Part shown: positions 5,282-25,311 of the stretch, piece after piece | Position numbering within the stretch: the stretch's first letter is position 1 | Layout of the letters: the number at the start of each line of letters is the position of its first letter | Source: a bacterium | GTDB taxonomy: Bacteria > Zhuqueibacterota > Zhuqueibacteria > Residuimicrobiales > Krinioviventaceae | Length of the DNA: 64,000 bases | Direction of reading: 5' to 3' | Assembly (NCBI GenBank): GCA_963675755.2 | Contig: CAXXMD010000003.1 | Span: 800,001 to 864,000, forward strand | Notes under the pieces: generated by a model | Told to the model about the DNA's origin: nothing | What the model saw: the letters and a program-made list of their open reading frames with translations, nothing else | The model's database searches: none | Made by a program: the position numbers and the translations under genes

Positions 5282-5311
5282 CATAAACTCTTTATAAAAA
5301 ATGGATAGATC

Positions 5312-6393: not shown

Positions 6394-9300
6394 TTATTTC
6401 ATCAAGGTCATCTTTTTAACGCTTGTGAAATCACCGGTTTCGAGGCGATAGAAATAGATACCACTGGCTACTTTCATGCCGCGTGCATCCATTGCATCCC
6501 ACTGTACATTATGATTACCAGCAGAAACTGTACCGTTAACCAAAGTTCTGATCTTTTGACCATTTGTTCCAAATACTTCCAATTTAACATGGGTAGTATT
6601 GGGCAATTGGTAAGAAATAGAAGTTGTCGGGTTGAACGGGTTAGGATAGTTCTGGTTCAGAGCAAATGAAGTAGGAATTGTTTCTTCTTCAACAGCATTT
6701 GGATTGAAATTGTCCCATGAAGGAGCATAAGCCATTCCAATAACTTCAGAAACATTACCATTCCAGTCAATTGCAACGATACCAAAAGTCTGGCCGTAAT
6801 CAGTATAAACAAATTCTACAGCGGTATAATACTCTGTTTCACCAGGAGCTGAAGGAGTGGGAAGACCAGTCAATATTTGAGCAGATTCCCAATCAGTAAA
6901 CTCGTCGCCCAAAGAATCATAAGCAACGCGGATCTGATAACCCCAAACAGGACCACCAGCGATAACACCGTCATCACCAGGAGCTGTCCATGACAGAGTA
7001 ACATTTTCTTCAGTAACATCAACTACTGTAAGGTCAACAACGTCACCAGGAAGAATGTCATCAGCATGTGCTGGATTAGACATTTCAGAAACATTACCAA
7101 CTTCGTCAGTAGTTTTAATTGCAAAGTATACGTCAAAATAGTAATCTTGCAAACGATCTACAGGTACAGTCAAAGACTGTTCTGTGCCGGCAGCAGCAAC
7201 TTCGGGAACTTCATCGAGAGCCATTGCATCATCCCATGTTGCAGGGGTAATAGGCATATAAGCATAACGGATCTCGTAAGATGTTCCTTCTTCAGGAGCA
7301 GTTTCAACCGGTGCAGTCCAGGTCAACAGTTTTGCAGTTTCGCCATCAACGTCAGCAGCATGCAAATCAGTGATCTGAGTAGGAGCAGTAACGTCTGCAG
7401 GGGTTAATTCAACAGATTCTGAAACAGCAGATTCATTGTCATTAAAATCTGTACTGGTAACCCAGAAATACAGGGTTTCACCATTGGTCAAACCATCAAT
7501 AGTAGCCATAGAATCAGATACTTCAGCAACAACCTCAGCTACAGCAACATCATTAGTGTCGGCAGCCAATACAGAGTAATAAGAAGCAGTTTCAAGGCCA
7601 GACCAGGTCAAACCAACTTGCATATCACCAGCAACACCTACAAAATTCACAGGAGTACCAGGATCTGTCATATCTACACCAGTGCTTGAATAAACAGAAA
7701 GATCATCAACGGTGAAATATAAATATCCGCCAGCTGCTGCAAGCTGGGCATTAGTCTTGTATGTAAAACCAACATGTACAGCTGCTTGACCGTCAGCTAA
7801 AGCTGAAATGTCATAAATAAAAGTGCCTCTTCTTTCAGCAACAGGTGTTGCTTCTGTAAAGACCTTAAAGTCCTGGAAAGTAGCACCACCATCAGTGGAT
7901 ATAATAATTTTAGCTTCAAAAGGATCAGCAACACTACCACTAATATGATGTTCCAATTTTAACGCAACATCTGTCATTTCTGAACAGTCCAATACTGGTG
8001 TAACAATCTGTTCATCAAAAGACAGGTCATCATTATATTTGAGGACCCAGAGTTCATTATCACCTCTGCCAAAGGAATCGCCAATATACCATGAATCATC
8101 TTGGCCAAGTACACCTTCATAACCCCAGTTAGCATACAGTTCGTCATCAGTTATGGTGTTAAAATTTTCAGCAATTGCAGGAGCTTCACCATAAACATGG
8201 AAATCAATAACCAATGAATCATCTTCTGCAACATCATCACCACCATAGATATCAGTATAAGCGATCAAAGTATAATCACCCTGATATTCTGGTGTCCAGT
8301 CTGCAAAATTGTAAAAATCCATACCTTCATTGAATTCTTGTTGTCCTGGGTACATTTTAAGGGTATCACCCTGTGCAGGAGCATAAGTATAAAGGTAACG
8401 TTCGTAAACAGTAGAACCAAAATTATTTACGATTTTTACAAAAGTATTGTAAATAGTAATATCACTTAGGCCAAAATTAGAAACAACAACCTGAGGATCA
8501 TAGGTTTCACCAACTGTGATAAATCCATTTTTAGAAAAAGTAGAATCAAGGTCTACAAAACTTACACCAATATCTGTTGCAAAACGGGTGTAAACTTCAA
8601 AAGAAGCATTGTAAACTTCAAAACCCCAGTTAGGATCACCACTGGTACCTTCATCATTGTCATCATAAATTGCGCGGAAACGAATTCCCAAAGAATCTCC
8701 GGGAGCGCCAATAACATTTTCAGTAATATTTAAAGCGGTAGTAATAGATTCAGATCCGTATCCTGACCAACCGGCAATACCTTCCCATGGGCCGGCTTCG
8801 CCTTGACCCAAACGGAGAGCTTCCATATCGCCAGCTTCAGAACCGTCATTGATGAACAAAGAACCGGTTCCATCAGAAACATCAATGTTATCTACAAACC
8901 AACCAAAAGTTTCACCAGTGTTTCCATCTTGAGCACTGTAACCACCATCACTGGCAAATGCCCAGCGAACCTGAACCATTCCACCAACATAAGCTGAAAG
9001 GTCAACAGTTACGGTTTCATAGTCATGAATTTCGCCGGCAAAACCAGCAGGATCTTCAGCAGTAATACCTTGTTGTTCAAAAGCACTAACCATGTCAGGG
9101 TAACCGCCTTCAGGTGTTAAAAGGGTCCATTCTGCATCTTCTGCAGTACGTGCCCAAAGGTTACCACCATCCCAGTTACCACTTTCCATACCATATATTT
9201 GGTCATATGTTAATGTTACTGCACCAGAAGCAGCAGTCAGATCAAGGAAAGGAGTGCGCAAATCTTCACGCCACCAGTTACCATAACCAGGAGCAGCATA

Positions 9301-10005
9301 CTGATTACTGGTCATCTGCCATTCGCCATCAGCCAAATGCCATTTTGGACTTTCTTTAATTTCTATCCAAAATTCATCATCAGCATCAGGTTCAGCAAGA
9401 TACATGTCCAAAACTAAATTACTAACACGGTAAGGATCACCAAGTTCACTTGTAGTTGGAACGCCTACCATAATTTCAATAGCTTCGTCTTTGGCTGCTA
9501 CAGTACCACCAAAATCGCCGCCTGGTTCAGGAGCAATTGCAGAATTGTAATATTCATATTGTGCAGGGTAGCCCATAACATTGATATAATCAAGCCACAT
9601 CCAATCATTACCGGCACCATCTTCACTCAAGTCAACTTTGGTAAATTCTTCAAAATCTTTGAGTGAATCAAAATGCGCAACATAAACAGGATAAATATCA
9701 CCACCACCTGGAACTTCATCTAATAAAGGCATAAATACCGCATTATCAGAATTCAGGCTGTTGCGAATGAGGTTATTTTTAATTATTTCTTGTTTTGACA
9801 ATGTTGCATTCAAGGCTTCTTTTTTAGCCTTCATGATGGCTTCTTTGGAAGAACCATCAATTGTCTTAACACTAAAATAGCCATTTTTTTGACTATTCAC
9901 CTTTACCTTTGTATCGGTGTTGGAAATTTTTGCAAATGACATTGTTGTAAACGTTAACAACAATACCAAAGATAAAAACAGCACAACCAATTTATTTTTT
10001 GTCAT
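6394..10005 (-). CDS. Large acidic secreted protein: InhA/MAM-like jelly-roll domains, CARDB-like, FN3 repeats, FlgD-Ig/T9SS type A-like C-terminal sorting domain
   Basis: Signal peptide; VDLSAYVGGMVQVRWAFASDG...GWFVDNI; FN3 motifs LTWTAP/LSWTAPGDDG; FALNQNYPNPFNPTT...ASGIYFYRL...KKMTLMK. No HExxH seen. Confidence 0.85.
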   Translation of the reverse strand: MTKNKLVVLFLSLVLLLTFTTMSFAKISNTDTKVKVNSQKNGYFSVKTIDGSSKEAIMKAKKEALNATLSKQEIIKNNLIRNSLNSDNAVFMPLLDEVPGGGDIYPVYVAHFDSLKDFEEFTKVDLSEDGAGNDWMWLDYINVMGYPAQYEYYNSAIAPEPGGDFGGTVAAKDEAIEIMVGVPTTSELGDPYRVSNLVLDMYLAEPDADDEFWIEIKESPKWHLADGEWQMTSNQYAAPGYGNWWREDLRTPFLDLTAASGAVTLTYDQIYGMESGNWDGGNLWARTAEDAEWTLLTPEGGYPDMVSAFEQQGITAEDPAGFAGEIHDYETVTVDLSAYVGGMVQVRWAFASDGGYSAQDGNTGETFGWFVDNIDVSDGTGSLFINDGSEAGDMEALRLGQGEAGPWEGIAGWSGYGSESITTALNITENVIGAPGDSLGIRFRAIYDDNDEGTSGDPNWGFEVYNASFEVYTRFATDIGVSFVDLDSTFSKNGFITVGETYDPQVVVSNFGLSDITIYNTFVKIVNNFGSTVYERYLYTYAPAQGDTLKMYPGQQEFNEGMDFYNFADWTPEYQGDYTLIAYTDIYGGDDVAEDDSLVIDFHVYGEAPAIAENFNTITDDELYANWGYEGVLGQDDSWYIGDSFGRGDNELWVLKYNDDLSFDEQIVTPVLDCSEMTDVALKLEHHISGSVADPFEAKIIISTDGGATFQDFKVFTEATPVAERRGTFIYDISALADGQAAVHVGFTYKTNAQLAAAGGYLYFTVDDLSVYSSTGVDMTDPGTPVNFVGVAGDMQVGLTWSGLETASYYSVLAADTNDVAVAEVVAEVSDSMATIDGLTNGETLYFWVTSTDFNDNESAVSESVELTPADVTAPTQITDLHAADVDGETAKLLTWTAPVETAPEEGTSYEIRYAYMPITPATWDDAMALDEVPEVAAAGTEQSLTVPVDRLQDYYFDVYFAIKTTDEVGNVSEMSNPAHADDILPGDVVDLTVVDVTEENVTLSWTAPGDDGVIAGGPVWGYQIRVAYDSLGDEFTDWESAQILTGLPTPSAPGETEYYTAVEFVYTDYGQTFGIVAIDWNGNVSEVIGMAYAPSWDNFNPNAVEEETIPTSFALNQNYPNPFNPTTSISYQLPNTTHVKLEVFGTNGQKIRTLVNGTVSAGNHNVQWDAMDARGMKVASGIYFYRLETGDFTSVKKMTLMK

Positions 10006-10050
10006 ATTGTTCTCCTTGTGAATACAATTTGTTCAGTTTTTTTTAAAGGA

Positions 10051-10084
10051 GAGAAAACAGGGCGATACATGTCTTGTATCGCCC
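10051..10084 (-). terminator. Intra-operon hairpin (leaky terminator or mRNA stabiliser)
   Basis: Perfect 10-bp stem GGGCGATACA/TGTATCGCCC (10060-10069/10075-10084), followed on the - strand by an imperfect U tract, TGTTTTCTC. Confidence 0.6.
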
Positions 10085-10094
10085 CATGAATAAT

Positions 10095-12845
10095 TTATTT
10101 CATCAAAGCCATCTTTTTAACGGATTCAAAATTTTCTGTCTGGAATTTATAGAAATAAACACCAGTAGGCAGATTTTGAGCGTCAAAACGAACGGTATGT
10201 GTACCTTGAGCTACAGTACCATCGATCAATTTAGCAACTTGCTGACCGGTTACGTTGTAAATGGTCAGTTTTGCTTTACCACTAGCCGGCATGGTGAATT
10301 GAATGTCGGTAGTTGGGTTGAATGGATTCGGATAGTTCTGTGACAGTTTGTAACCATCAATAACAGCTACATTATCAACTGCATTACCTAATGGATCGCG
10401 GTCAATAACAGTTACATTATCAACAAACCAGGTTGCAAAGCCACCATCATTGTTGAGGTTTTTCCACCAGAAGCGGAACTGTACTGAAGAAGCGCCAGCA
10501 ACCATATCTGTAATTTCATAAGACATGTATTCAAGGCTGAAAGAAATAGCTTCAGCAGCGCCACCAACAGTTTTTGCCCAATGAACAACTGGCAGCCAGG
10601 TTGTGCCACCGTCTACAGACAGGTCAACCAAAGCATAGATTGGGAAATTGTCATCACCATCGGTTCCACCAATTTTACTGGAGAATTCGAGGTAAACATC
10701 ATTAGTTGTTTCAAGATCATAAACAGGGCTGTACAGCAATTCGTTTTGTGGTTGTGGAATGGTACCAGTAGCCATATCACCATACAAAGTATCATTACGA
10801 ATACCAGCCATATGACGAATGTAAGCACCAATGTTGTTTGGTTCATCTTCATCATTTACAAACCAGGTATTTAACCAGTCAAAATCTTCAGTGTTTGCAC
10901 TATCAACTGTAGTCCAACCGCCAAGATCCAGGTCATCACTATAAGTAGCCTTTTCAGACCAGGTTGGGAATGGGAACCAGTTATGATCACCATCTTCATC
11001 GAGGTTCAGATATTCCTGGAATGTTTCAAAAACAACTACTTCATCCAAAGAAGGATAAGCATAGAAACCAGAACTTACAACATCGTTGTATGCAGCACCG
11101 TCTCCATTGTAAAGAGAAGTCAAATAAATGTTATAGAATTCTTTTTCAGTAGGAACAGTAAATTCACCCAATGTCAACTGACGGCTTTCTGCGCCTGCCA
11201 ACAATGGTGGAGTTTGATCGTTTTTGGTGTACAAAGTGTCACCAGATTCATTGGTAATAACCAATGATACAGGTACAGGACCCAAAGAGCTGGTACCATT
11301 GTTTTTAACCGTACCGGTCATTACAATGGTTTCGCCTTTGTTTATTGGGTTATTTACAGTCAAACCAAAATCAAGTGTTTGTGGTTTTGCATCAATTTCA
11401 GGAATAACTGCTGTACCATCAATGTACTGTGCTTTATTGAAAGGAGCACCTGCAGCTGACCAGAAAATGTCAAGAGTTGATCTTGCAGGATCGTAAACAA
11501 CATCACAACCTTGATCACCCAAAGGAGAGTTACCATCCTGGGTAATCCAACGATGCAATTCCCAATCCATATCAGCAGGTCCAACACCAGCATAACTGGT
11601 AGCGTCAACAAGTTTCAAAGCAACAATGTCGCCACCACCACCAACAAAGTTTTCATACCAGTTGGTATTCATAACAACATAAACAATGTCGTTTTCATCA
11701 TCAACATCTGCGTTTGGCAGATACAGATGATCATCATTAACAACAGGAATGTTGGCATAATTGTCAGAATTAAACTGAACAGCGCCTTCGTAACCTTCGC
11801 CATTGTTCAATGAACCAAAATCGGTTGCACTTGTAGCATCCGTTGGTGGTTCCCAGGTACCAAACCAAACAGTTTCTGCTTCATAACCATCCATGAAATA
11901 GTAACCACGGTTGTTTTGATCAAAGATCATTTCAGGCATACCCCAGCAGTCTTCCAATTCTGCTCTCAAGCGTGTTGGAGGAATGGGGCCCCATGCCTGG
12001 GCTGCTGATTTGTAATAAATGTGATAAGGGGTTTTATCACCAAATGTATCAGAACCACCGTCACCAGAAAAGATGATGTGGGGATCGTTGTTACGGTCAA
12101 GTAAAATAGTTCCCTGGAATACAACACCGCTGGGAACAAAACTGATAGCTTCTGCACCAACAGAACCGTCAGATTTGGTGAACACGAGGTTTTCCAAATC
12201 AGCAGCACCGTCTGCAGCAGACAGATCAGCTTTAGTATAGAACATGTCCTGATTTTGTTTAGCATAGGTAATATGAACAACGCGGTCTGAACCAATTGTC
12301 ATAGTTGCCCAAGATACTTCAGCTGTAGGAACATTGATTTTGTTACCCAAGTCCATAAAAGGAGTCCAGGTTTCACCGCCATCAGTAGAACGGGTCAACT
12401 GAGTACGCCATACACCACCTGTAATCTGAATAGCAGGCAACAGGTAGAGGTCGTCATTGGTTGGATCGATGGATAATTTAGCCATTAAACTACGGCTCCA
12501 TCCGGTATAACCAATGGTTTCAGGGATGTTCATAGGTTCTGTCCATTCCAGGCCCAATTCATCAAGTGAATGTGCATAGTATGGGAAATCGTAACCAGGA
12601 TCTTCCCAAGAAACATGGAGCAGACCATCAGAGGTACGAGCAGAGTGACGACCACCATAGTGGAATGCACGCGGCATAGCATCACCAACATCAATACCAC
12701 CAGGTTTTGTAAAAGCAGTTACGCTAACTTCGGATACAGGATCAGGATCAGCAATTTTTGCCAATTTTAACTGAGCACTTGCTCCGGAAGCCATAATTAA
12801 AGAAAATACAACAAACAGTAACAATAAGGAATTTACCTTTTTCAT
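10095..12845 (-). CDS. Acidic secreted protein: BNR/Asp-box propeller-like N-terminal region, CARDB, MAM-like domain, T9SS type A-like C-terminal domain
   Basis: GGGAGG RBS before MKKVN; Asp-box TRSTDGGETW; TVKNNG (CARDB-like); SVDGGTTW...VQFRF...WFVDNV; YKLSQNYPNPFNPTT...KKMALMK. Confidence 0.85.
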   Translation of the reverse strand: MKKVNSLLLLFVVFSLIMASGASAQLKLAKIADPDPVSEVSVTAFTKPGGIDVGDAMPRAFHYGGRHSARTSDGLLHVSWEDPGYDFPYYAHSLDELGLEWTEPMNIPETIGYTGWSRSLMAKLSIDPTNDDLYLLPAIQITGGVWRTQLTRSTDGGETWTPFMDLGNKINVPTAEVSWATMTIGSDRVVHITYAKQNQDMFYTKADLSAADGAADLENLVFTKSDGSVGAEAISFVPSGVVFQGTILLDRNNDPHIIFSGDGGSDTFGDKTPYHIYYKSAAQAWGPIPPTRLRAELEDCWGMPEMIFDQNNRGYYFMDGYEAETVWFGTWEPPTDATSATDFGSLNNGEGYEGAVQFNSDNYANIPVVNDDHLYLPNADVDDENDIVYVVMNTNWYENFVGGGGDIVALKLVDATSYAGVGPADMDWELHRWITQDGNSPLGDQGCDVVYDPARSTLDIFWSAAGAPFNKAQYIDGTAVIPEIDAKPQTLDFGLTVNNPINKGETIVMTGTVKNNGTSSLGPVPVSLVITNESGDTLYTKNDQTPPLLAGAESRQLTLGEFTVPTEKEFYNIYLTSLYNGDGAAYNDVVSSGFYAYPSLDEVVVFETFQEYLNLDEDGDHNWFPFPTWSEKATYSDDLDLGGWTTVDSANTEDFDWLNTWFVNDEDEPNNIGAYIRHMAGIRNDTLYGDMATGTIPQPQNELLYSPVYDLETTNDVYLEFSSKIGGTDGDDNFPIYALVDLSVDGGTTWLPVVHWAKTVGGAAEAISFSLEYMSYEITDMVAGASSVQFRFWWKNLNNDGGFATWFVDNVTVIDRDPLGNAVDNVAVIDGYKLSQNYPNPFNPTTDIQFTMPASGKAKLTIYNVTGQQVAKLIDGTVAQGTHTVRFDAQNLPTGVYFYKFQTENFESVKKMALMK

Positions 12846-12922
12846 AATTCCTCCCAATTTAAAAAATCAGTGAATTAACTCTTACCAACAAGTTTAAGTA
12901 TTACAATAAAATTTTTGCTCGC

Positions 12923-12934
12923 TCACCTCCTTTT
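12923..12934 (-). promoter_or_regulatory. Orphan extended Shine-Dalgarno AAAAGGAGGTGA with no start codon at normal spacing
   Basis: Perfect anti-SD complement in the 12846-12979 intergenic region, about 70 nt upstream of the RBS of the 10095-12845 gene. Confidence 0.45.
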
Positions 12935-12979
12935 CCTGACTTTTTTTAAATGCTTCATTGAATGCCTGCTAAATTTATA

Positions 12980-14296
12980 TTAAAAAATATCTTTAGGACT
13001 CCAATCCGCTGGAGGTGTATCACTCAGGCCATTAATCAAAGAGATCAAGTTGAATGAAAAATCTGTTCTGGTATTATCAACAACATCTCCCTGACCCAGA
13101 TAAACCTCTAAACATTCTTCAGCACTTAAATAATCATTAATATTATAATAACAAATAGCCATTACTTTGTAAAAATCCCACATATTATAGTCTGTATCAC
13201 CATCAAAAAGGTTACGTTGATATGGATATTTACCACTATCAAGGGCTTTTAAATCCTGGTTGATGTACATCAAAGCCCGGCTGGCTTCAAGTGCAGAAAC
13301 ATAATCACCTTGTGCAAGATAAGCTGCAGACATGCCGGCATAAGCGTCGGCCTGCATATATGTACCACCACTCTGAGGATTATTAGCATCGTATTTATTG
13401 TAGAAATCACCTTTGATATAATAGATATCACCCGGTTGATCTTCGGGAGCATCACTTAGATCTTCAAGTTCCTCATTTAAAACAATAAAACGATTGGTAT
13501 ATCTGTCAATGAGATATCCTTTTTCATGATACGTAAAAATAGCTTCAATTTCTTTAAGGGTTTCAACACGTGGCACAATTGAAAGAACTCCCGTTTGTGT
13601 ATCAATGTAATATTGATCCAGCTCGGTCAACTCGTTTTCAGAAGCAACAGCAGTAGTAAAAGTTGCAGGATTAAAACTTAGAGAATTATCCAATGCATTT
13701 CCCAGTGCTGTTGAAGTTGCGTTACTGAGTTCTGATTTGGGTAAATTAATCACACGGGTTCCAGGATCCAACTCAAAAGCTGGCGAAGCTCCCATTTTTT
13801 GAACAACACGTGCACTATAACTGTCAATATCATCAATGCTGACAATATATTCATCTGTCATAAGTTGCAACTCGCCGTTCACATCTACATATTGAGTGTC
13901 TGGCACAGCATAAGCCTCAACACCTTCTTTAGCAACAACCGGAAACCGGCTGCTGCTAACAGATTCAAGACTAATAACAAAGCTAAAGTTTGTTATAGCC
14001 TGAGCATATTTTTCAAGTCTGCTATAGGTCCAACCTAAACCTCTATATGCATCAATAGAAAGTTCAGGTGAAACGTTTCTTTGCAAAGTAGCTTCAAAGT
14101 TTGCCACAGCAGCTTCATAATCACCATTTTGGTAGGCTGTCCAGCCTTCTACTATTAAACCTTCAACAGACTGTGCGGTTGTAGGTATATTATCTGATTT
14201 GTCAGAACAACCAAACAAGACCATCAAAGTAACGATTGCAATGAGAACAAAAACCGATCTTGCAGCCAGGTCTTTGTTTCGAGTAATCTGAATCAT
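12980..14296 (-). CDS. TPR-containing lipoprotein
   Basis: AAGGAGG RBS; lipobox LFG-C; TPR helices GWTAYQNGDYEAAVANF and AYRGLGWTYSRLEKYAQAITNF, interrupted by a beta-rich insert. Confidence 0.8.
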   Translation of the reverse strand: MIQITRNKDLAARSVFVLIAIVTLMVLFGCSDKSDNIPTTAQSVEGLIVEGWTAYQNGDYEAAVANFEATLQRNVSPELSIDAYRGLGWTYSRLEKYAQAITNFSFVISLESVSSSRFPVVAKEGVEAYAVPDTQYVDVNGELQLMTDEYIVSIDDIDSYSARVVQKMGASPAFELDPGTRVINLPKSELSNATSTALGNALDNSLSFNPATFTTAVASENELTELDQYYIDTQTGVLSIVPRVETLKEIEAIFTYHEKGYLIDRYTNRFIVLNEELEDLSDAPEDQPGDIYYIKGDFYNKYDANNPQSGGTYMQADAYAGMSAAYLAQGDYVSALEASRALMYINQDLKALDSGKYPYQRNLFDGDTDYNMWDFYKVMAICYYNINDYLSAEECLEVYLGQGDVVDNTRTDFSFNLISLINGLSDTPPADWSPKDIF

Positions 14297-14336
14297 CAAT
14301 GCCTCCTTAAATCTATAGCAAATTAAATAATCAACA

Positions 14337-17300: not shown

Positions 17301-18494
17301 ATAAGAAACAACAATTAATATCTCAGCAAGTGGATCAATTATTGTAGCTTTTGCCGATTCACCATGAAATTTGAAATCATTTACATCAATACCAGGAAAA
17401 GGGCCATAACCAGTGTATGTTGAAAAGTCTTGTGTATAATCATTAATTCTAATATTCCACAAACCTTCATCACCTACAATACCTTCTGTATTTCGTTGAG
17501 TATATAATGGATCTGTGGTTTCAAGATCATTGGGTGGACAAATAAATTTTCTATAGGGTTGTCCCAAGCTGTCATATTCTACTAAAACAACTTTGTCTTC
17601 GCGGCTAATGCCATCTACCGCAAACCAGTTATCGTAAATTTCACCTGTATTGGGGTCCCACAACGCGCGGCCCAATTCAGCAAGTTTGGCTTCATCAAGA
17701 GTAGATTCGAAAACATTTACAACCGTGTTTGCTTTGGTTGCTGTAATTTTGCGTTCAACACCCTGCCAGTAAGCGCCTTGATTTTTTGTTAAAAAGACAC
17801 CGGCTTCTGTAGCGGCCATAACGGAACCATCAACAACAGAAAGCGCGTTTACAGGTAAATATTCGTCATCGCCATCTTTGGGTAAACCATTTGACATACG
17901 GTCCCATGAAGTACCGCCATTGTCACTGGCATAAACACCAGCATCAATATCGATATCACTATCTTCATCGCCATCATCTGCCCAAACGTAACCGCCCAGA
18001 CCGGCATAAACAACGCCATTTGCTTCAGCGAAACAAAAGACAGGAGTACGAACAGTAGCACGTCTCCAGCGAGCGCCTTCAACGTCCCAACGATAAATAC
18101 CATCATCAAGGCCTGCCAAAACAGTTCCATCAGATGTAACAAAAATCGCGTTAACCGGGCTTTTTCCAAAAGTTCTTGAACTGTTTGGATGGCCATCACT
18201 CAGGCTGACCCAGGTTGTTTCGTTCAATCCTTTTGAAAAAACACCAGTTCGTTTGGTACCTGCATAAACAACGCCATTGGTTTCATCAACTGTGATAGCA
18301 GTAATCAGGTTGTTCTCAACCCAAACATCACAATTTTCACCAATTGCGGCCAAAGTGGCACCAATTTTATAATCATACTGGAAAAACTGATAATTATGTA
18401 CCCACAACAATCTGGACTCGCCAACTGTCTGGGCATATAATGCATTTCCCATAAATAAAAGCACAAGGAAAATAACAGATAATTTTTTAAACAT
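14337..18494 (-). CDS. Secreted protein with an M30/hyicolysin-like peptidase domain (degenerate zinc motif), inserted YCF48/BNR-like propeller and FlgD-Ig/T9SS-like C-terminal domain
   Basis: PDMDDNNKISILL...IAGYF...NKGEFLYID...ALGHQLLRLMHWNND.DEQRWVTEG; repeats SDNGGTSW/STTGGTSW/TADNGATW; YQNYPNPFNPST...RKMVLIK. Confidence 0.8.
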   Translation of the reverse strand: MFKKLSVIFLVLLFMGNALYAQTVGESRLLWVHNYQFFQYDYKIGATLAAIGENCDVWVENNLITAITVDETNGVVYAGTKRTGVFSKGLNETTWVSLSDGHPNSSRTFGKSPVNAIFVTSDGTVLAGLDDGIYRWDVEGARWRRATVRTPVFCFAEANGVVYAGLGGYVWADDGDEDSDIDIDAGVYASDNGGTSWDRMSNGLPKDGDDEYLPVNALSVVDGSVMAATEAGVFLTKNQGAYWQGVERKITATKANTVVNVFESTLDEAKLAELGRALWDPNTGEIYDNWFAVDGISREDKVVLVEYDSLGQPYRKFICPPNDLETTDPLYTQRNTEGIVGDEGLWNIRINDYTQDFSTYTGYGPFPGIDVNDFKFHGESAKATIIDPLAEILIVVSYPADPNFEVGGKFINVKYTDGTNTWVWTAKSTSLRGLNNEKKGILINNDNLVSGEEIDNYDDFNTTEIIAQMELYTSSGLVFNKMAYAGNDQVVYAGNENGVYKTSDMGLSWDLVGSVTEGLENIDIQSLTALTDGSLYAGTMDNVFKSTTGGTSWEALGTIDAETEVFSVNVINNTLYAGTPYGFYETADNGATWTGSNFGMPAYVNEENIQTLINYFDNSTPANPSMGVYDVIAQQFGEENIPDMDDNNKISILLHNIEDIGYEENLTSNGLSGTTNIAGYFRPEDQNLIGNTNKGEFLYIDSRQATDAQRAAALGHQLLRLMHWNNDYDEQRWVTEGIGFMAERLCGFPLPSSMPDFQTLTGAANVYSLVAGTALSPWAVSPDDGDMNNRFTQVSMFFTYLFENFGGFDLFNKIIADEDNGWEGIQNVLQAEYGKNFDDVYAAWVIANCINDVNQSDPISGAKYGYQDSLYSAVLNNYMDEKGLGMNYGNLFGHNTSMSEYKEYRVLQEYGQGLNNWAYTIRYLFPDPSIFADNPVQSVINYWDKDLKTGEPINMKINASDYANLRVHLIKVKPDGSKDVENITSLFNEEKELSFNVLDKYEPNADRTSLKYHEMYVVVSNQDSLGRGVKYLQLKDVTPPEVDYQIVHNPLYPEFVDILISANEHTFSDIGTEFENPTVEMVYFTDTTAVDISLFDNIDPKSSGSGADIQSEYFIYKGRYHLTEEGQVNLVIRKLQDCAGNDNEEIVAPLSVSKALPKFSTTLVTDDENASMVIPSNTFLSETYLTLFTNKPETMVGLQKSDADDYEFASDLYQFGPVNKSLNNNAALSIKYSTDAVSEDIGLYRLQDDEWISVPAMINEKQGTISASVNELGVYAVISGNVANQSIETEQVPTTYAVYQNYPNPFNPSTEIKYQVPQQERVVIRIYNMNGQLVNTLVDQNMSAGYYTAKWNGLNARGARVSSGVYVYEMRAGSYVETRKMVLIK

Positions 18495-18550
18495 ATATCC
18501 CTCCGGTAAAGGTCTTTCAAGAGATCAGGAAATAATCATTATCAACTAAA

Positions 18551-19582
18551 TTAGAATTCCAAAGAAAAAGCCATCTGGTGGACCAGATCCAGTATACCAA
18601 AATCGGTATAACTGTAATCGATGCTTGCAGCACCCAGTCCACTCAAACTCAAACGCAAACTACCACCAACAGAAAAGTTGGCAGCATCATGATTTCCGAT
18701 ATAACCGCCACGGAGGGCAATAATATTTTTAAACCAATATTCACCTCCCAGATTTATCTGTTCCACATTATCATTGGGGTGAACCAGGTCACCGGAAACA
18801 GTAAATTTGTTCAGAGGAGAATCAAACAGATCATAAGCAAAACCTGCTCTAAAAATCAAAGGCAGATGATAGGGACGATAATCGTCATACGGTTCAGTAA
18901 TGTACTGCTGAGTATCAGAATCGAAACCAACAATATCAGCATACTGACCAGGGATCTGCATTTCAGGACCAAAGTTCATAATGGCAATACCTAAACGCAA
19001 AGACTTGAAACCTGTTTGATAAATAGCACCCAAGTCAAATGACCATGCGGAAGCAATTTCATCTTCACCGGTATAATCATTTATAGAGCCATAATCTTCA
19101 CGAACATATTTAATGGTACCACCAAAAGAAAATTTATCAGTCAGATATCTTGCATAACTCAAACCAATCATAACATCATTTTTCGAAAATTGTTCGCCGG
19201 TTCCTTCCTGATATTTATAAGTAGTAATATCCATATCTCCTGAACCAAGCACCATGGCGCTCACACCAAAAGAACCCAGAGAAGGAAAAGTTTTTGCAAT
19301 ACCCACTACATTCATTTGAATATCAGCGAACCATTGAACATTAGAAATCAACACATTATAATTCTTAACCATAGCTAAACCGCCAGGATTCCAAAACATG
19401 GAAGACGCATCATCAACAACGGCGACACATGCATTTCCTAGCCCAACATTTCTTGCGCCGGCGCCAATTTTCAGAAACTGAGAACCAGCTGTACCAACTT
19501 TGGCAAATTGTTGGGCAGGTAAAACATGAACCAATCCAAACATTAAGGTGATGCACAATAAAGCAGTAAATTTTTTCTTCAT
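18551..19582 (-). CDS. PorV/PorQ-family outer-membrane beta-barrel (FadL-like; T9SS shuttle homolog)
   Basis: Hallmark KVGTAGSQFLKIGAGARNVGLGNA...DASSMFWNPGGLA; GGEYW..IIALRGGY; IDYSY; C-terminal LEF. GAGGT RBS before MKKKF. Confidence 0.88.
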   Translation of the reverse strand: MKKKFTALLCITLMFGLVHVLPAQQFAKVGTAGSQFLKIGAGARNVGLGNACVAVVDDASSMFWNPGGLAMVKNYNVLISNVQWFADIQMNVVGIAKTFPSLGSFGVSAMVLGSGDMDITTYKYQEGTGEQFSKNDVMIGLSYARYLTDKFSFGGTIKYVREDYGSINDYTGEDEIASAWSFDLGAIYQTGFKSLRLGIAIMNFGPEMQIPGQYADIVGFDSDTQQYITEPYDDYRPYHLPLIFRAGFAYDLFDSPLNKFTVSGDLVHPNDNVEQINLGGEYWFKNIIALRGGYIGNHDAANFSVGGSLRLSLSGLGAASIDYSYTDFGILDLVHQMAFSLEF

Positions 19583-19643
19583 TAGTAATAACCTCTTTAT
19601 TATGATTTGCATTCTACAATAGAAAAACAAAGGCAGCAATACG

Positions 19644-21932
19644 TTACATCATAATTACAAACTTGCCGACAAACTTGTCATTTTCCGTTTCAACCACATA
19701 CACATACAATCCACTTACTACAGACTGAGTGTTCCTGGATATTAAATCCCAGGTTTCTACACTACTGCCATCTGTATGATCAAGGGAAATAACCATATCA
19801 CCAGCAAGAGTAAAAACTGTAATTTTACATACAGGAGGCAAGTTTGTAAAAAGTATTGCGTTTTCGTAAATGTCTTCAAAGACATCGGTTGCCTTGTATG
19901 GATTGGGAACAACTTTAATTTTCTGTAAATCAACTACTTCTTCAGTTTCATACATACGTTTCGGTATTACAGCAAGCGGAGCACCTGACTCGCTCTTACT
20001 GTAATTGGATTTACTGCTTTCAGAAGGCGGTAAATTAATGGTTTCATCACCGGTATCGTAAGCTACAACTGTATAGAAATAAGGAATACCATTAATAGGC
20101 GCTTCTACAGTTGTGCCCCATGGTGTAGTACCACCAACATCAACAAATTCATTTGCAATATCATCCAAATCTACATAACCCAAAGAATCGCGCTCTGTAT
20201 TTACAACTTTGACAGGTCCATCAACATTGTCGAAAGCTGCAATGAGTGTCCAGTTACTTGGAGTATATTGTGCACGATAAATTTTATAACCCACAAAATC
20301 AATTTCTTTGGTTTTTGTGTCGGGTGTAATTTCTGCAATATTATCCCATACCAAATTTACAGAACGGTCATTCGGACTGTAACGCAGGTTTGGTGTAGGA
20401 GGAGGTGCAGGCAACAGCCAGTGTGTATCCTGATGTGGAGGTGTAGGATTATAAGGACTGCTGAACTCACTACCTGTGTAATATGCTTCCAACGCTTTAT
20501 CAGCATTTGCACGCATACCTTCAAGGCCCTGGCCAACTACTTCTGCCCAAACAACACGTACTGTGTCATTTGCTTCCATGTCATACGGACCTACAGTAAT
20601 CAGAAAACGATAGTCAAATGTAGGCGCACCTACGTCCAACGGGTTTGGTAAAAAGTGATAACCTTTACTGAATTCATGCTGACCTTTTTGATAGTCATAT
20701 TGCTCGATATCGGTATCAGGATCACTTTCCCAGTTCCACCATTGGTGTGAAAAAGCGCGGGTTATACGAGAGTGAGAAGAATCTTGCACGTCAAACACAT
20801 AGTCTGGAGATGCTGCATCTGCATACAGTACCCGACCACCCATGAAACCGGAACAATCCGGACTCAAGGTACGTTCACCAAAATCATTCTCTGAAGAACT
20901 TGGGTTATCACCATCATAAATGTAAGACATGTTACGTGATACTTTCCAACCGATCAATGGAGTACCATCTGCTTTTACAAGCGGATCACCAGCAGCGATT
21001 TCATAATCACCAATGGTAACAGCAACGTCAGCAGTAATAGCATCACCACGTTCATCTTCGATGATAGAATATTCATCAAAAACACCATCACCTTCGACTT
21101 GTTCAAGATCATAGTTGTCATTAAATCCACCCATGGGAAGACCATAAGGAATACCATAATCATCATAACCGGAAATTCCATCCTGATCAAGATCAAGGGG
21201 GTCAACAATATCGACCTGGTCGGTATTGGTATCAGAACCATCGTATCCGTCCCAGTCTACAAGGTCATCGATATGTTTATCGGTAACATCAATAGAAGAA
21301 ACATCAACATCATACCACCAGCTTACATATACTTCTTTAAGATAACCGTTTGTACCGGTATTAATAATATCAAATTCATATGCAATAAAGTCATCATATT
21401 CAGGCATGCTCCAGGAGAGCCCACGTTCAACAACTTTGATACCCAAAGGCACATGCTCTGTTTTAGGTTCAAGATCATCAAATACACAATAACTGTCGTT
21501 GATAGATTTTGGAGTTGCTACAGCAACCACTTCTTCATTACCCATCAAAAACTGGGAACCATCAGATGGTTCCCATTCTTCAAATGTATAAAAATAACTT
21601 GAACATAATTTTTCACCATTTAATACTGTTGAAACCCAAATAGCTGCATCGTATAAATAACTGTTATTTGATGCGCCCGGCCATTCAACAGAAGGACGAC
21701 CTGAAGAATCAAAGTTTGGATCACCAAAACTACCATAATTGGTTATAACATTCCACATAGTACCAATAGTATGGGCCTTAAATTCCTGATCAGGACGGTT
21801 GTTTGTTTTGCGCAATTTAAAATCGCGGCGCTGGTCTGTTTTTTCCGGATGCCTTTCAGCATGCGCAACGGAAAAAGAGAAAACCATTAAAAGGACTAGA
21901 ACTATCTCCAGCTTGTATTTTTTTAACAACAA
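19644..21932 (-). CDS. Secreted TonB-receptor-associated protein with FN3 domain and a variant (VVPNPY-type) C-terminal sorting domain
   Basis: Signal peptide; VITNYGSFG..SVEWP; APPPTPNL..VNLVWD..FVGYKIYR..YFYTVVAYD; tail IKVVPNPY..ILFTNLP..WDLISRNTQSVVSGLYVYVVE..GKFVIMM. Probable TTG start after GGAGG. Confidence 0.78.
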   Translation of the reverse strand: MLLKKYKLEIVLVLLMVFSFSVAHAERHPEKTDQRRDFKLRKTNNRPDQEFKAHTIGTMWNVITNYGSFGDPNFDSSGRPSVEWPGASNNSYLYDAAIWVSTVLNGEKLCSSYFYTFEEWEPSDGSQFLMGNEEVVAVATPKSINDSYCVFDDLEPKTEHVPLGIKVVERGLSWSMPEYDDFIAYEFDIINTGTNGYLKEVYVSWWYDVDVSSIDVTDKHIDDLVDWDGYDGSDTNTDQVDIVDPLDLDQDGISGYDDYGIPYGLPMGGFNDNYDLEQVEGDGVFDEYSIIEDERGDAITADVAVTIGDYEIAAGDPLVKADGTPLIGWKVSRNMSYIYDGDNPSSSENDFGERTLSPDCSGFMGGRVLYADAASPDYVFDVQDSSHSRITRAFSHQWWNWESDPDTDIEQYDYQKGQHEFSKGYHFLPNPLDVGAPTFDYRFLITVGPYDMEANDTVRVVWAEVVGQGLEGMRANADKALEAYYTGSEFSSPYNPTPPHQDTHWLLPAPPPTPNLRYSPNDRSVNLVWDNIAEITPDTKTKEIDFVGYKIYRAQYTPSNWTLIAAFDNVDGPVKVVNTERDSLGYVDLDDIANEFVDVGGTTPWGTTVEAPINGIPYFYTVVAYDTGDETINLPPSESSKSNYSKSESGAPLAVIPKRMYETEEVVDLQKIKVVPNPYKATDVFEDIYENAILFTNLPPVCKITVFTLAGDMVISLDHTDGSSVETWDLISRNTQSVVSGLYVYVVETENDKFVGKFVIMM

Positions 21933-21980
21933 AGCCACCTCCAATTAATTTAAAAAGCAATCAATAATCATATGTCAATG

Positions 21981-24900
21981 TTAGAAATCAACCCTGAAAC
22001 CGATACGGGTCAAACGACCTCTGTCATAAACAGTTGGGTTGCCATATTTACCTTCAGGATCACCTTTAGCATAATACCACTCTTCATCATCAATCGCAAT
22101 GATGTTTTGACGATCCAGCAGGTTACGGACATCAACAAAGATTTGAGGTACAAGGCGACCAACATGGAAGCGTTTAGTAATACGCATATCAAGGGTCATG
22201 TTGTACGGCAATGTCTCTGTATTATCCGGAGCAGCTTTGTCCTGGCCTTTTGGAGGTGTCCAGCGGGTTCCGCTGCCATAGTACCACAAAAAGTTTACAC
22301 CCAAATCGTTAAGAATTGGAGTGCCAAACAAATTCTGATCTCTCGGTATTCTAAGATCAAGGTTAGCATTAATAGTATGACGTTGATCCCAATCAGTATA
22401 GGATTCAAATCGTGGTAAAACATTACCAGCCCATTCGGTTGAATAACCCTGACCAACCGTAGAGCTTTTGTTTTTAGCAACTTGATAAGTATAGTTAAAA
22501 CGACCACTCAGGTATAAAAATGCAATACGTTCAGGACGTCTTAAAAATTCAAATTCAAAACCACGAACATTTCCATAATCCGCGTTATAATAGAAACCAT
22601 ACCAGTCACGTACCGTATAATAAATCGGTTTACTGTCTGTCAGGTTTGAAATATCTTTATAAAAACCAGTAACTTTGATTTTCATAGAGTTAGAAATCTG
22701 GTGATTCAAGCCCACTTCATAAGCTGTGGTACTTTCAGGTTCAAGATTCGGGTTACCAATAACCGGGAAACCACCACCCAGATCAAACTCGAGGTTACGG
22801 AACAAATAATTTCCAAGAGGTTCCTGGAAATATTTTCCATAACTAAAGTGCATTACATCACGCTCGGTAATTGGGAATGCAATACCAAAACGGGGGCTCC
22901 AGTAATCTTTGAATTGAATAGATTGCGGATCTTTGATATCATTAACCTGAGGAGCACCTTCGTAATTGTAAATATTCGGGTCCCAAGCCTGATCAAGATA
23001 ACCATTACCATTGGTATCTTCACCTTCATCAAGAGTTCCGTTTGCATTCAAGTCTTCATGACCATCATCATCATAAGTCCAGGTAGGATCATAAAGGTTG
23101 TTGGGATAATCGTTCCAGTTGGCGTCAAAGTAATCGTAACGAACACCAACATTCAAGATCATACCCTGGTATTCCATTTTATCCTGGACATAAAATGCAC
23201 CGCTGTTTGGGAATACGGTAAAGTTTTCACCATATCCGTAACGGTCGGTTGCGTCATAGTTGAAAATTTCACGATATTTGAGATCAACACCCGTACGAAC
23301 GTTATGATTGGCGTTAACCTGGCTTTCAATATCGAATTTCACACCATAACTTGTAGATTTGTTTTCTGACCAATATGTACGGTCCCAGGTCAAACCTGAA
23401 CCATAAGCATAATATCCATCAGTATTTTTCTCACCCTTGAATGGGATATCAGAACAACTCATCCATTTGCTGGGATCGTTTGGATAGGCATCTTGCGAAG
23501 CGTCTACATAGCCATCAGAGTTGTAGTCAGTAAACAGGTCAGTGCCATAAGAATCAAGTTTACCATTACCATTCAAATCTTCAGCAACGTTATCAAAATA
23601 ACCATCACCATCAAAATCTTTCCATTCCCATGAATCAATGGTTCCGTCGCCATTCAAATCAACATTTTCACTAACGGCATCCAGTTTTCCATCGCCATCA
23701 CGGTCTTCATTAATTTGTTCATTCGCATTTTGGAAGAATCGTGTATAATATCTATCAATATGCAACTCGTAAAACGTCTTTGAACTCAATTGGTGAGTCC
23801 AGGTAACTGCAAGCTGATTACTTTCTTCTTTCAAGTCTGCAAGATGATCAAGCATATTGAATACATCAAGCTTGCCATTATAGTTGAGATCTTCACGGTC
23901 AAGAATTTCATTACCGTTCAAATCTTCACCAAGATCAAGATAGTTATTACCATTAATATCTTCTGTATCCAGCATGCCATTGTTGTACCAATCCGGAATG
24001 TAACCGGAATTGTCATCAACACCGTCATTATTCAAATCACCAAACGGCATATATTTTTCACTCAAATCTTCAACAGTTGGAACTTTCCATTCCGCACCGT
24101 ATCCACTGTTTGATGAAAAATAATCCCAATCTTTTTTATGGTAAAGACCTTTAATTCTCAAAGTGTGACTTGGAGAAATTTTATAAGTAACTTTACCCTG
24201 ATAGGTGCCTGCTTCACTTTCCTGATTTATAAAACGGCCATCAGATTTTTCATACCATCCGGTAAGGAAATAACGCAATTCACCGGGAACTCCAATTGCT
24301 TTGGTAAAAGGAACAGGACCACCAATGGAGAACTCGGGATTATGACGATTTTCAACCACTTCATCTTCACGAACGGTTGAGCCCCATCCATCAAGAGCAC
24401 TGGTACTGTAACGAACGGTACCCGAAAGAACCGGACCACCATCTTTGGTAACAACGTTAATGATACCGGATTGTGCATTACCATACTCTGCACTAAAACC
24501 ACCGGTCATAACCGCTGTTTCTTCAATAGCAAGCTCCGGAAGGTCTGTATCAAACTGACCTGAAAGCGGGTCCATAATATTGGTCGAGTTGTCAAGCAAA
24601 TAGGTAACTTCACTCGTTCTACCACCACGAGCGTGCATATTACCATTATCATCAACAACAATACCCGCAGATGTTGCAACTACATCCTCGAAAGAGTCAA
24701 TCGACATATGCTCAACTTCTTCACTGCTGGTAACTGTACGGCTTGAAGTTTGATCCATCTGAATCAGGGGACGCTCAGCAGTGACCGTGACGGTTTCCCC
24801 GGCCTCAAGGATCGTAGGTTCAAGATTAAAAGTTATCTTTGCAGTCAAGTCAGCTTTAACTCTGACATCGGTAATGAGCATTGGCGAATAACCAATCATT

Positions 24901-25130
24901 TCAGCACGTAAAGAATAAGAGCCGGCAGGAACGTTTATGATGAAAAACTCACCATTCAAATTCGTTGCTGCACCCATCTTTGTGCCTTCAATCAGGACAT
25001 TCACTGCCGGTAAAGGATCTTTTGTATCCTTGTCAATAACCTTACCGACAATTTTCCCTGTTGTACCGGCAAATAAAGCCACCGGAAGTAACAACAAGAG
25101 AAACCAAACAATCACTTGTTTTTTTAACAT
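21981..25130 (-). CDS. TonB-dependent receptor with an N-terminal carboxypeptidase-regulatory-like domain and Ca-binding-like loop insertions
   Basis: AAAAGGAG RBS; AGTTGKIVGKVID; HARGGRTSE; TGGFSAEYGNAQSGIINVVTK; SPRFGIAFPI; WDQRHT; C-terminal RVDF; many D.NG(N/D)G motifs. Confidence 0.93.
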   Translation of the reverse strand: MLKKQVIVWFLLLLLPVALFAGTTGKIVGKVIDKDTKDPLPAVNVLIEGTKMGAATNLNGEFFIINVPAGSYSLRAEMIGYSPMLITDVRVKADLTAKITFNLEPTILEAGETVTVTAERPLIQMDQTSSRTVTSSEEVEHMSIDSFEDVVATSAGIVVDDNGNMHARGGRTSEVTYLLDNSTNIMDPLSGQFDTDLPELAIEETAVMTGGFSAEYGNAQSGIINVVTKDGGPVLSGTVRYSTSALDGWGSTVREDEVVENRHNPEFSIGGPVPFTKAIGVPGELRYFLTGWYEKSDGRFINQESEAGTYQGKVTYKISPSHTLRIKGLYHKKDWDYFSSNSGYGAEWKVPTVEDLSEKYMPFGDLNNDGVDDNSGYIPDWYNNGMLDTEDINGNNYLDLGEDLNGNEILDREDLNYNGKLDVFNMLDHLADLKEESNQLAVTWTHQLSSKTFYELHIDRYYTRFFQNANEQINEDRDGDGKLDAVSENVDLNGDGTIDSWEWKDFDGDGYFDNVAEDLNGNGKLDSYGTDLFTDYNSDGYVDASQDAYPNDPSKWMSCSDIPFKGEKNTDGYYAYGSGLTWDRTYWSENKSTSYGVKFDIESQVNANHNVRTGVDLKYREIFNYDATDRYGYGENFTVFPNSGAFYVQDKMEYQGMILNVGVRYDYFDANWNDYPNNLYDPTWTYDDDGHEDLNANGTLDEGEDTNGNGYLDQAWDPNIYNYEGAPQVNDIKDPQSIQFKDYWSPRFGIAFPITERDVMHFSYGKYFQEPLGNYLFRNLEFDLGGGFPVIGNPNLEPESTTAYEVGLNHQISNSMKIKVTGFYKDISNLTDSKPIYYTVRDWYGFYYNADYGNVRGFEFEFLRRPERIAFLYLSGRFNYTYQVAKNKSSTVGQGYSTEWAGNVLPRFESYTDWDQRHTINANLDLRIPRDQNLFGTPILNDLGVNFLWYYGSGTRWTPPKGQDKAAPDNTETLPYNMTLDMRITKRFHVGRLVPQIFVDVRNLLDRQNIIAIDDEEWYYAKGDPEGKYGNPTVYDRGRLTRIGFRVDF

Positions 25131-25148
25131 CACACAACTCCTTTTGAA

Positions 25149-25169
25149 AAAATGAATGCTATTCATTTT
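25149..25169. promoter_or_regulatory. Palindrome AAAATGAAT-N3-ATTCATTTT just upstream of the receptor RBS (candidate operator or RNA hairpin)
   Basis: Perfect 9-bp inverted repeat with a 3-nt spacer. Confidence 0.45.
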
Positions 25170-25175
25170 ATATGG

Positions 25176-25208
25176 AAATAAAAAAGGGCGATTTCAATGC
25201 GCCCTTTT
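25176..25208 (-). terminator. Intrinsic terminator inside the 5' leader of the TonB/PorV operon (candidate attenuator)
   Basis: - strand AAAAGGGCG-CATTGAAAT-CGCCCTTTTTTATTT, downstream of the predicted promoter and about 45 nt before the start codon. Confidence 0.7.
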
Positions 25209-25282
25209 CGAATATATTAACCAAATGTAAAAAATCTGTATTCCATACTGTTTCAAACAAGTCACCAAATTTCTTGTTAAGA

Positions 25283-25311
25283 AATATAATTGTTTTTTGA
25301 AATATTGTCAA
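25283..25311 (-). promoter_or_regulatory. Sigma70-type promoter for the TonB/PorV operon
   Basis: TTGACA-17 nt-TATATT on the - strand. Confidence 0.7.

Follow-up and report, generated by a model that had tools for sequence, protein, structure and literature searches.

SusC/SusD is the textbook account of polymer capture in Bacteroidota, and the pair is used for the automatic detection of polysaccharide utilisation loci (PULs). To our knowledge, many abundant environmental lineages degrade polymers yet have few or no SusD genes; the lineages at issue here are KSB1, Marinimicrobia, Calditrichota, Zixibacteria and WOR-3. A second precedent comes from type IX secretion systems (T9SS). The available part of PMC10202324 describes that the C-terminal domain (CTD) of PorZ is retained and stays bound to the barrel PorQ, as the CTD of PorU does to PorV, and suggests that cognate PorV-like barrels may protect CTDs from cleavage. 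We analysed a stretch of 64,000 nucleotides (the window; positions 800,001 to 864,000 of contig CAXXMD010000003.1, assembly GCA_963675755.2) from an uncultured KSB1-type bacterium of the Zhuqueibacterota. Between positions 6394 and 25311 of the window a TonB-dependent receptor (TBDR), a secreted protein termed X and a barrel of the PorV/PorQ family are encoded in direct succession. This receptor-X-barrel triad recurs in many relatives of Bacteroidota and looks like an undescribed stand-in for SusC/SusD.

The locus comprises seven open reading frames (ORFs, g1 to g7), all on the minus strand and separated by intergenic gaps of 4–122 bp:

21981..25166, minus strand: g1, TonB-dependent receptor (1061 amino acids (aa) as called; CarbopepD_reg, Plug and TonB_dep_Rec_b-barrel domains)
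19644..21944, minus strand: g2 = X, secreted partner (766 aa; signal peptide, supersandwich, FN3 domain, variant CTD)
18551..19639, minus strand: g3, 14-strand-type barrel of the PorV/PorQ family (probable start at 19582)
14337..18494, minus strand: g4, T9SS cargo (1385 aa; N-terminal propeller-type repeats, inactivated M30-like domain, Ig-like domains, type A CTD)
12980..14299, minus strand: g5, TPR lipoprotein, probably surface-exposed (439 aa; TPR_1, TPR_2, TPR_12)
10095..12857, minus strand: g6, acidic T9SS cargo (920 aa; Reelin subrepeat B, weak BNR match, type A CTD)
6394..10005, minus strand: g7, acidic T9SS cargo (1203 aa; fn3, weak InhA-like MAM match, type A CTD)

All seven proteins are acidic, with isoelectric points (pI) from 4.05 to 5.02. 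The initial annotation, made from the letters of the window, had described seven co-oriented genes behind one promoter site and had read the first five products as a TonB receptor with calcium-binding-type loops, an FN3 protein with a variant tail, a PorV/PorQ-like barrel, a degenerate peptidase and a TPR lipoprotein; it had further noted that a SusD-like gene and an intact catalytic domain were missing. This description was borne out in each of these points, and no intact catalytic domain was found among the locus proteins.

Searches of the host genome (98% complete) for the SusD families PF07980 and PF14322, which did succeed in Bacteroides thetaiotaomicron as a control, returned 0 matches, and none of the seven locus proteins matches a SusD family. 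SusC/RagA proteins above the cut-off are absent from the same genome, the best candidate reaching 125 of 368 bits over its N-terminal part only. The genome contains 12 modules of receptor, X and barrel, i.e. this locus and 11 paralogous ones: 12 of its 44 TBDR matches have a PorV-family gene within two genes, and in 10 of these 12 the order is receptor, X, barrel. The 11 paralogous loci were scanned with Pfam. Glycoside hydrolases (GH), lyases or a sulfatase were found beside the triad in five of them and LacI, AraC-type or hybrid two-component sugar regulators likewise in five, so that seven of the 11 carry enzymes and/or regulators of either kind. The enzymes belong to GH13, GH2, GH5, GH28 and GH43 or are a pectate lyase and a sulfatase. 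Four of the paralogous loci have the following gene orders (HTCS, hybrid two-component system):

LacI-GH13-TBDR-X-barrel-CTD protein-GH13 with CTD-SSF symporter
GH2-TBDR-X-barrel-GH5
HTCS...TBDR-X-barrel-CTD protein-pectate lyase
regulator-TBDR-X-barrel-GH43-GH28-GH28

As the paralogous triads lie amid carbohydrate-active enzymes (CAZymes) and regulators in a genome that lacks SusD, the triad holds the place of SusC/SusD in PUL-like loci. The locus in the window itself has no CAZyme, regulator or inner-membrane transporter according to Pfam and NCBIfam searches. Within the host genome only this orthogroup of the triad is non-catalytic. A second arrangement of receptor and T9SS cargo was also observed: at four sites of the host genome (C2:160857/164181, C2:188230/191299, C3:2148602/2151586 and C3:3064205/3067222) a TonB receptor is directly followed by a protein with an ordinary CTD, and a PorV-family barrel is missing.

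X matches no Pfam family, and its profile gave 0 matches against PDB sequences. The protein was modelled by AlphaFold (AF2) from an alignment of 52 sequences (predicted local distance difference test, pLDDT, 83.6; predicted template modelling score, pTM, 0.77). The model comprises a supersandwich (approximately aa 50–490), an FN3 domain (approximately aa 515–630) and the CTD (aa 675–766), and an Asp-rich insert at 212–290 holds many Asp residues that are invariant in the alignment. In an exhaustive VIA-align comparison (approximately residues 50–650) the model aligned to glucodextranase 1ulv_A over 243 residues (Z 20.4, root-mean-square deviation 2.8 Å), followed by the N-terminal supersandwich domains of GH15 glucoamylase, GH116, GH94 and GH65 and by galactose mutarotases; many N-terminal domains of glycoside hydrolases match at Z 13 to 20. 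Foldseek recognised only FN3 tandems, in the C-terminal part of the model, and the 30 nearest ESM Atlas clusters have no Pfam family in common. The supersandwich is not followed by an (alpha/alpha)6 catalytic domain, and X is therefore regarded as a non-catalytic protein of carbohydrate-binding type. The model thus predicts a galactose-mutarotase-like supersandwich joined to an FN3 domain and a CTD, with sugar binding suggested by the type of fold. The X profile retrieved 767 cluster representatives at E ≤ 1e-30. Relatives of X in a large protein collection are unnamed or named solely for their T9SS tail, and none has a Pfam domain.

The tail of X is a feature in its own right:

19647..19922, minus strand: X-type C-terminal domain (aa 675–766, ending ...GKFVIMM; relatives end GKFxIIK/R)

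As a T9SS type A CTD it scores marginally (TIGR04183, 23.7 bits at a cut-off of 23). The same type of tail is common to the 12 proteins that occupy the X slot in the host genome. These are scored by the X profile with 61 to 1166 bits, compared to at most 25 bits for proteins whose only match to it is an ordinary CTD. Just before the window (C3:785665-796623) three large proteins with ordinary CTDs are encoded, and two of them (1360 and 1342 aa) hold domains resembling the body of X (profile positions approximately 46–209 and 392–521). The body fold of X therefore circulates on ordinary T9SS cargo, too.

The barrel g3 is a member of the PorV/PorQ family (NF033709, 203.7 bits at a cut-off of 90, model positions 2–325 of 326) that stays below the equivalog cut-offs for PorV (NF033710, 89.9 of 250 bits), PorQ (NF033711, 83.1 of 220) and PorV2 (NF052325, 67.4 of 325). 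At E ≤ 0.01 it matches only barrel families of the PorV/PorQ type, and no PorP/SprF family is among them. The host genome yields 32 PorV-family matches, of which 21, g3 included, are above the cut-off. A PorV-family gene adjoins 11 of the 15 proteins that pass the X-type filter (two of the 15 qualify by similarity of the body rather than of the tail), compared to six of the approximately 250 ordinary CTD proteins of the genome. The CTD class of X is thus found almost only beside PorV-family barrels. In a maximum-likelihood tree of 18 PorV-family proteins the 12 receptor-linked barrels can form one group, for which support is weak (79/95), and the sub-clades of the tree mirror the length classes and tail sequences of the X proteins. 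A sole X-type tail outside a triad belongs to a protein of 1398 aa encoded approximately 5 kb from a PorV-family barrel (C2:2135498-2145235); no g1-like TonB receptor is among the ORFs listed within approximately 9 kb of that barrel.

The initial annotation had looked to sprA and porU genes elsewhere in the genome, and a profile search indeed detected core components of the T9SS there: SprA_N (135.9 bits), two PorU (884 and 877 bits) and PorZ (272.6 bits). The best PorV candidate (C2:903673) is near the threshold, with 240 bits at a cut-off of 250. SprA_N was also found in four of five distant genomes that carry the locus, the fifth being an assembly of 1.6 Mb. The retention of the PorZ and PorU CTDs on PorQ and PorV provides a mechanistic precedent for X and g3. 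An identity of X with PorZ or of g4 with PorU was rejected, since the canonical genes lie elsewhere and the similarity is confined to the CTDs. Besides the two canonical PorU, PorU-like proteins occur in open frames of 1610 and 1636 aa (C3:1892336-1897526 and C2:2179288-2185148). Their matches are partial and below the cut-off, and each adjoins a PorV-family barrel; they may represent extra sortase-barrel pairs.

The receptor g1 has a Plug and a 22-strand-type barrel domain, both above cut-off, as expected of a TonB-dependent receptor (CarbopepD_reg_2 67.5 bits; Plug PF07715 29.3 bits, cut-off 23.9; barrel PF00593 70.5 bits, cut-off 27). Its true start is probably the ATG at 25130, which lies behind AAGGAG. 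It is not a SusC/RagA protein, as TIGR04056 (cut-off 368 bits) gave no match at E ≤ 0.01. The 12 top-scoring TBDR paralogues of g1 are the 11 other triad receptors and a receptor at the start of the window, the latter without a PorV-family barrel. Calcium-type motifs are concentrated in one part of g1:

23511..24038, minus strand: cluster of D-x-[DN]-x-[DN]-G calcium-type motifs (aa 377–552; two more at aa 705–722)

In total g1 has nine such motifs, and its orthologues of at least 900 aa (n = 66) have 1–15 each, mostly 5–9. The 12 paralogous receptors of the host genome have none or one, and the background is 0.3 per 1000 aa. The DxDxDG-type calcium signature is specific to the g1 orthogroup.

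The receptor at the start of the window belongs to the g1 clade as well (positions 1–6319, plus strand). It is cut by the window start, scores 376 bits to g1 and has no calcium motifs. Next come lipoprotein paralogues in a tandem array of four (355, 336, 337 and 335 aa; N/H-C-W lipobox); a CarboxypepD_reg domain is present in three, the last two are 84% identical, and a PorV-family barrel is missing there. A g1-like receptor was also seen after the locus in two distant relatives (L105 and L108).

The initial annotation had proposed the synteny of the triad as a check, and it was surveyed by a pattern search with the X alignment in contigs of one genome per species. This yielded 147 relatives, of which 80 loci were kept; ORFs in these loci, with flanks of 7 kb, were labelled by phmmer with the proteins of the window as queries. 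X was called in 78 of the 80 loci, and in 70 of these 78 it has the receptor immediately upstream and a PorV-family barrel immediately downstream. In 49 of the 78 the order continues after the barrel with a g4-like and a g5-like gene, which gives the complete set of five. Nearly all misses are at contig ends, beyond the 7-kb flank, or concern large CTD proteins that have diverged beyond the reach of a search with one sequence. The locus occurs in KSB1, Neomarinimicrobiota, Calditrichota, LCP-89, Zixiibacteriota, Cloacimonadota, TA06, WOR-3 and Fidelibacterota, a few of the lineage labels probably stemming from mis-binned genomes, and the five-gene form is spread over no fewer than eight named candidate groups of phylum rank. 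Five of ten same-phylum relatives have kept all seven genes, and those five share the family of the host; orthologues of g6 and of g7 are each present in five of the ten. In the other five the core of five genes is continued by a single CTD protein that is weakly g6-like. An X orthologue (E ≤ 1e-100) was found in 13 of 145 genomes of the phylum and in eight of the 105 high-quality ones. Due to this patchy distribution the orthogroup is not a housekeeping machine, and a universal machine of that kind was rejected.

The fourth gene of the conserved order, g4, encodes a large cargo protein with a type A CTD (TIGR04183, 36.9 bits) and a weak BNR-type match to NF045728. A profile of 36 orthologues matches the M30 peptidase lugdulysin (7bb9) with E 1.8e-31 over approximately 290 residues (profile positions 609–901, 7bb9 residues 68–354); the domain lies at approximately aa 620–900 of g4. 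This similarity surfaced solely through the profile: the single sequence retrieved nothing from PDB sequences, and the ESM Atlas gave no usable match. The HExxH motif is absent in 36 of 36 orthologues. The HExxH helix of 7bb9 aligns to a degenerate 'ahqltr' in the profile, with HQLLR in the protein of the window. From these sequences the inactivation of the peptidase is judged to be ancient.

Taken together, we favour the view (probability roughly 0.6) that the locus is a capture-and-import unit of the SusC/SusD kind, in which the T9SS delivers the surface partner and a cognate barrel retains it, on the pattern of PorZ and PorQ. The TonB-dependent receptor g1 would act as the importer. X would be exported by Sec and then by the T9SS and would keep its variant CTD, which would stay bound to g3 and so hold X at the cell surface; its carbohydrate-binding-type supersandwich would thereby be presented beside or over the receptor. 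Non-catalytic binders would complete the unit: the pseudo-M30/propeller protein g4 and the TPR lipoprotein g5, putatively at the surface, joined within the family by the acidic g6 and g7. The unit as a whole would carry calcium-binding motifs. With this non-catalytic make-up, polymer is probably captured without cutting at this locus. Gene content and its conservation, the settings of the paralogues, the folds and the lost active site come from the data, whereas we infer the T9SS export of X, the retention of its CTD on the barrel, its contact with the receptor, the import and the role of calcium. The initial annotation had inferred that the locus builds a calcium-dependent capture or adhesion complex rather than a degradative PUL. 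For this orthogroup, the idea of a calcium-dependent, non-degradative capture complex is supported by the calcium motifs, the Asp-rich insert of X, the pseudo-protease and the lack of enzymes. As a contrast between the triad and PULs the inference does not stand, given the CAZymes and regulators in seven of the 11 paralogous loci.

Several points weigh against the capture-and-import model. As CAZyme, regulator and inner-membrane transporter are all missing from this locus, the assumption of glycan import rests on the analogy with the paralogues. In two paralogous loci X is not located between an adjacent receptor and barrel and stands elsewhere in the operon. The supersandwich also occurs in proteins that do not bind sugars, e.g. 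the periplasmic domain of YidC (Z 12.7), and the CTD score of X barely exceeds the cut-off. The orthogroup is patchy within its phylum. Finally, g5 is conserved and probably surface-exposed, so the role of SusD is not necessarily vacant, and g5 could be the lid of the receptor instead of X.

The last point leads to an alternative in which g5 is a functional SusD-like lid, and X and its barrel form an accessory surface binder comparable to SusE/F; we consider this unlikely. In its favour, g5 is part of the conserved five-gene order, with a g5-like gene at position +3 in 56 of the 80 loci, and all 37 orthologues share its lipobox Cys31. At least two acidic residues follow within seven residues of this Cys in 31 of the 37, and the available part of PMC12578637 treats such a pattern behind the lipid-anchor Cys, with two or more acidic residues, as indicating surface exposure in Bacteroidota; according to this, g5 is probably surface-exposed. 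The AF2 model of g5 shows confident TPR helices and a low-confidence insert at 124–299. Its longest alignments are to chains of the SusD superfamily (3hdx, Z 13.8; 3jq1, Z 12.9; 187 residues each). However, generic TPR proteins score higher, reaching Z 17.1, and Z values of approximately 13 are expected for helical repeats. Furthermore, no SusD family of Pfam matches g5, and the Foldseek matches listed are generic TPR chains only, none of them at E ≤ 0.001. g5-like genes are also absent from the 11 paralogous triads, a phmmer search of the genome giving two weak matches near E 1e-3; the triad therefore works without g5.

A second alternative, quite unlikely in our judgement, is a calcium-dependent adhesion or matrix complex for the attachment to particles or cells, in which the receptor is an anchor or a sensor and captured polymer is not imported. 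The composition of the cargo would suit such a role: it is non-catalytic and very acidic throughout and consists of binding-type domains (FN3, MAM-like, BNR-like, propeller, pseudo-protease). Within this cargo, g6 (pI 4.18, type A CTD with 46.1 bits) and g7 (pI 4.05, 37.2 bits) had been annotated initially as a pair of acidic MAM/CARDB/FN3/Asp-box proteins. The acidity, the FN3 assignment and the type A CTDs of this pair were confirmed, fn3 and Reelin subrepeat B being above their cut-offs, whereas the BNR/Asp-box and InhA-like MAM matches are below the cut-offs and CARDB had no match at E ≤ 0.01. Searches of Pfam, NCBIfam and PDB sequences detected no catalytic domain in either protein; among PDB sequences g6 had no relative, and g7 matched only FN3 domains of titin. 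The calcium-type motifs of the receptor and the lack of a regulator, CAZyme or inner-membrane transporter would likewise fit adhesion. On the other hand, the receptor keeps its Plug and the full barrel, and it groups in one clade with those of the PUL-like loci.

It is improbable that the locus encodes accessory machinery for T9SS sorting and attachment or for outer-membrane biogenesis, either a second complex like PorZ/PorQ/PorU or a unit of the type of a FadL-like barrel associated with the machinery for beta-barrel assembly (BAM), and thus no nutrient system at all. In sizes and layout the genes do recall PorZ and PorU, CTD proteins of approximately 770 and of more than 1100 aa, and the barrel PorQ. 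Genes of the tig-clpP-clpX type adjoin the locus (an EngB-like GTPase, ClpX, ClpP and trigger factor are encoded upstream), and ORFs whose sizes of approximately 430, 200 and 415 aa would match such genes precede the receptor in several distant loci. In addition, the FadL-like BamG holds a surface lipoprotein in the BAM complex of Bacteroidota, as described in the accessible part of PMC12578637. Nevertheless, canonical PorU and PorZ are encoded elsewhere in the genome with the high scores given above, g4 matches PorU in the CTD only, and X has no match to the body of PorZ. The presence of the orthogroup in just 13 of the 145 phylum genomes and the location of paralogous triads in sugar-utilisation loci also argue against such machinery. 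Very improbable is a reading of g3 as a FadL-type channel that passes a hydrophobic compound and is linked to X incidentally: matches of g3 to Toluene_X/FadL (20.5 bits, under the cut-off) and UPF0164 are weak, and they stand against a barrel that occurs nearly one-to-one beside proteins with an X-type CTD and has diversified together with them.

The following elements were identified in the sequence around and between the genes of the locus:

25283..25311, minus strand: sigma-70-type promoter TTGACA-17-TATATT, top-ranked among promoter-like sites in the region (11 of 12 matches)
25176..25208, minus strand: terminator-like hairpin GGGCG...CGCCC with U-run in the 5′ leader
10057..10087, minus strand: terminator-like hairpin in the g6-g7 gap (13 pairs, of which 6 are G-C, then a T-rich tail; consensus match only)
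6337..6377, no strand assigned: bidirectional hairpin of the intrinsic-terminator type (A-run, GGGCGCTGG...CCGGCGCCC, T-run) that closes the operon

The promoter core TCTTGACAAT...TTATATT is unchanged in four of four aligned family members. The leader hairpin is located between this conserved promoter and the probable true start of g1. The 5′ leader folds with −25.2 kcal/mol (z −2.34), and the hairpin is kept in three of four aligned relatives; it may be an attenuator. Due to the hairpin between g6 and g7, the latter may be transcribed at a different level or separately. If the seven genes form one transcription unit, both terminator-like hairpins, in the leader and between g6 and g7, would lie inside it. 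Rfam searches over 5800–26000 gave three sub-threshold matches, all at the closing terminator and none in the leader.

Within the open full-text literature (supplements and subscription journals lay outside the scope) no description of the receptor-X-barrel triad was found, and this includes the accessible parts of PMC12578637, PMC10202324, PMC3534657 and PMC5317091. If the favoured model is true, it would explain substrate capture in lineages poor in SusD, the large X family would be a new marker for predicting utilisation loci in metagenomes, and the role of PorV/PorQ-type barrels would extend from secretion to nutrient uptake. The occurrence of the enzyme-free form with calcium motifs across at least eight named candidate groups of phylum rank points to a widespread substrate. 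We tentatively extend the model, with the odds against it: the triad would be an ancient outer-membrane architecture for import, general among the lineages around Bacteroidota and undescribed so far, where a T9SS-exported protein, tethered non-covalently to a PorV-like barrel of its own, replaces the lipid-anchored SusD. The five-gene orthogroup would then be its most widely shared form, a calcium-dependent, enzyme-free trap with a pseudo-protease and a sugar-binding-type fold as its receptors, which would pass on to the TonB receptor either a macromolecule in one piece or a polymer that is mineral-bound or acidic.

In comparison with described systems, the locus resembles SusC/SusD (RagA/RagB) in that a large TonB receptor, whose N-terminal domain is carboxypeptidase-regulatory-like, has its gene beside that of a presumed surface binding partner, and in that the unit is multiplied in the genome, with paralogues amid CAZymes and LacI or hybrid two-component regulators. 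It differs from SusC/SusD in that the host genome has no SusD family, g1 falls outside the SusC/RagA family, X is no lipoprotein but an all-beta protein of the Sec/T9SS-secreted type with its own barrel, and this locus is without enzymes or a dedicated regulator. With lugdulysin and hyicolysin (MEROPS M30; 7bb8, 7bb9) the central domain of g4 shares homology over the approximately 290 residues mentioned above; unlike these peptidases, g4 has lost the HExxH zinc site in all 36 orthologues and combines the domain in one chain with a propeller, Ig-like domains and a T9SS CTD. The BamG-BamH pair of Bacteroidota, as far as covered by the available part of PMC12578637, offers a 14-stranded barrel of the FadL family which holds a surface protein by extracellular loops. 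In that case, however, the barrel is of a different subfamily, the partner is a lipoprotein and the pair belongs to BAM, not to a TonB receptor unit. In Flavobacterium, PorP/SprF barrels are likewise encoded beside their cargo, the adhesins SprB and RemA with type B CTDs (PMC10202324, available part), whereas the tail of X scores as type A and not B, g3 is of the PorV/PorQ type and a link to motility is missing. A mechanistic parallel lies in the PorZ-PorQ and PorU-PorV pairs of Porphyromonas gingivalis: there, according to the same part of PMC10202324, cargo with an uncleaved CTD stays on the barrel, and here a protein with a variant CTD, which would be bound likewise, is encoded beside such a barrel. 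Unlike in these pairs, X is not PorZ, g4 is not PorU and g3 is below the equivalog cut-offs of PorV and PorQ, and the pair of X and g3 is coupled to a TonB receptor.

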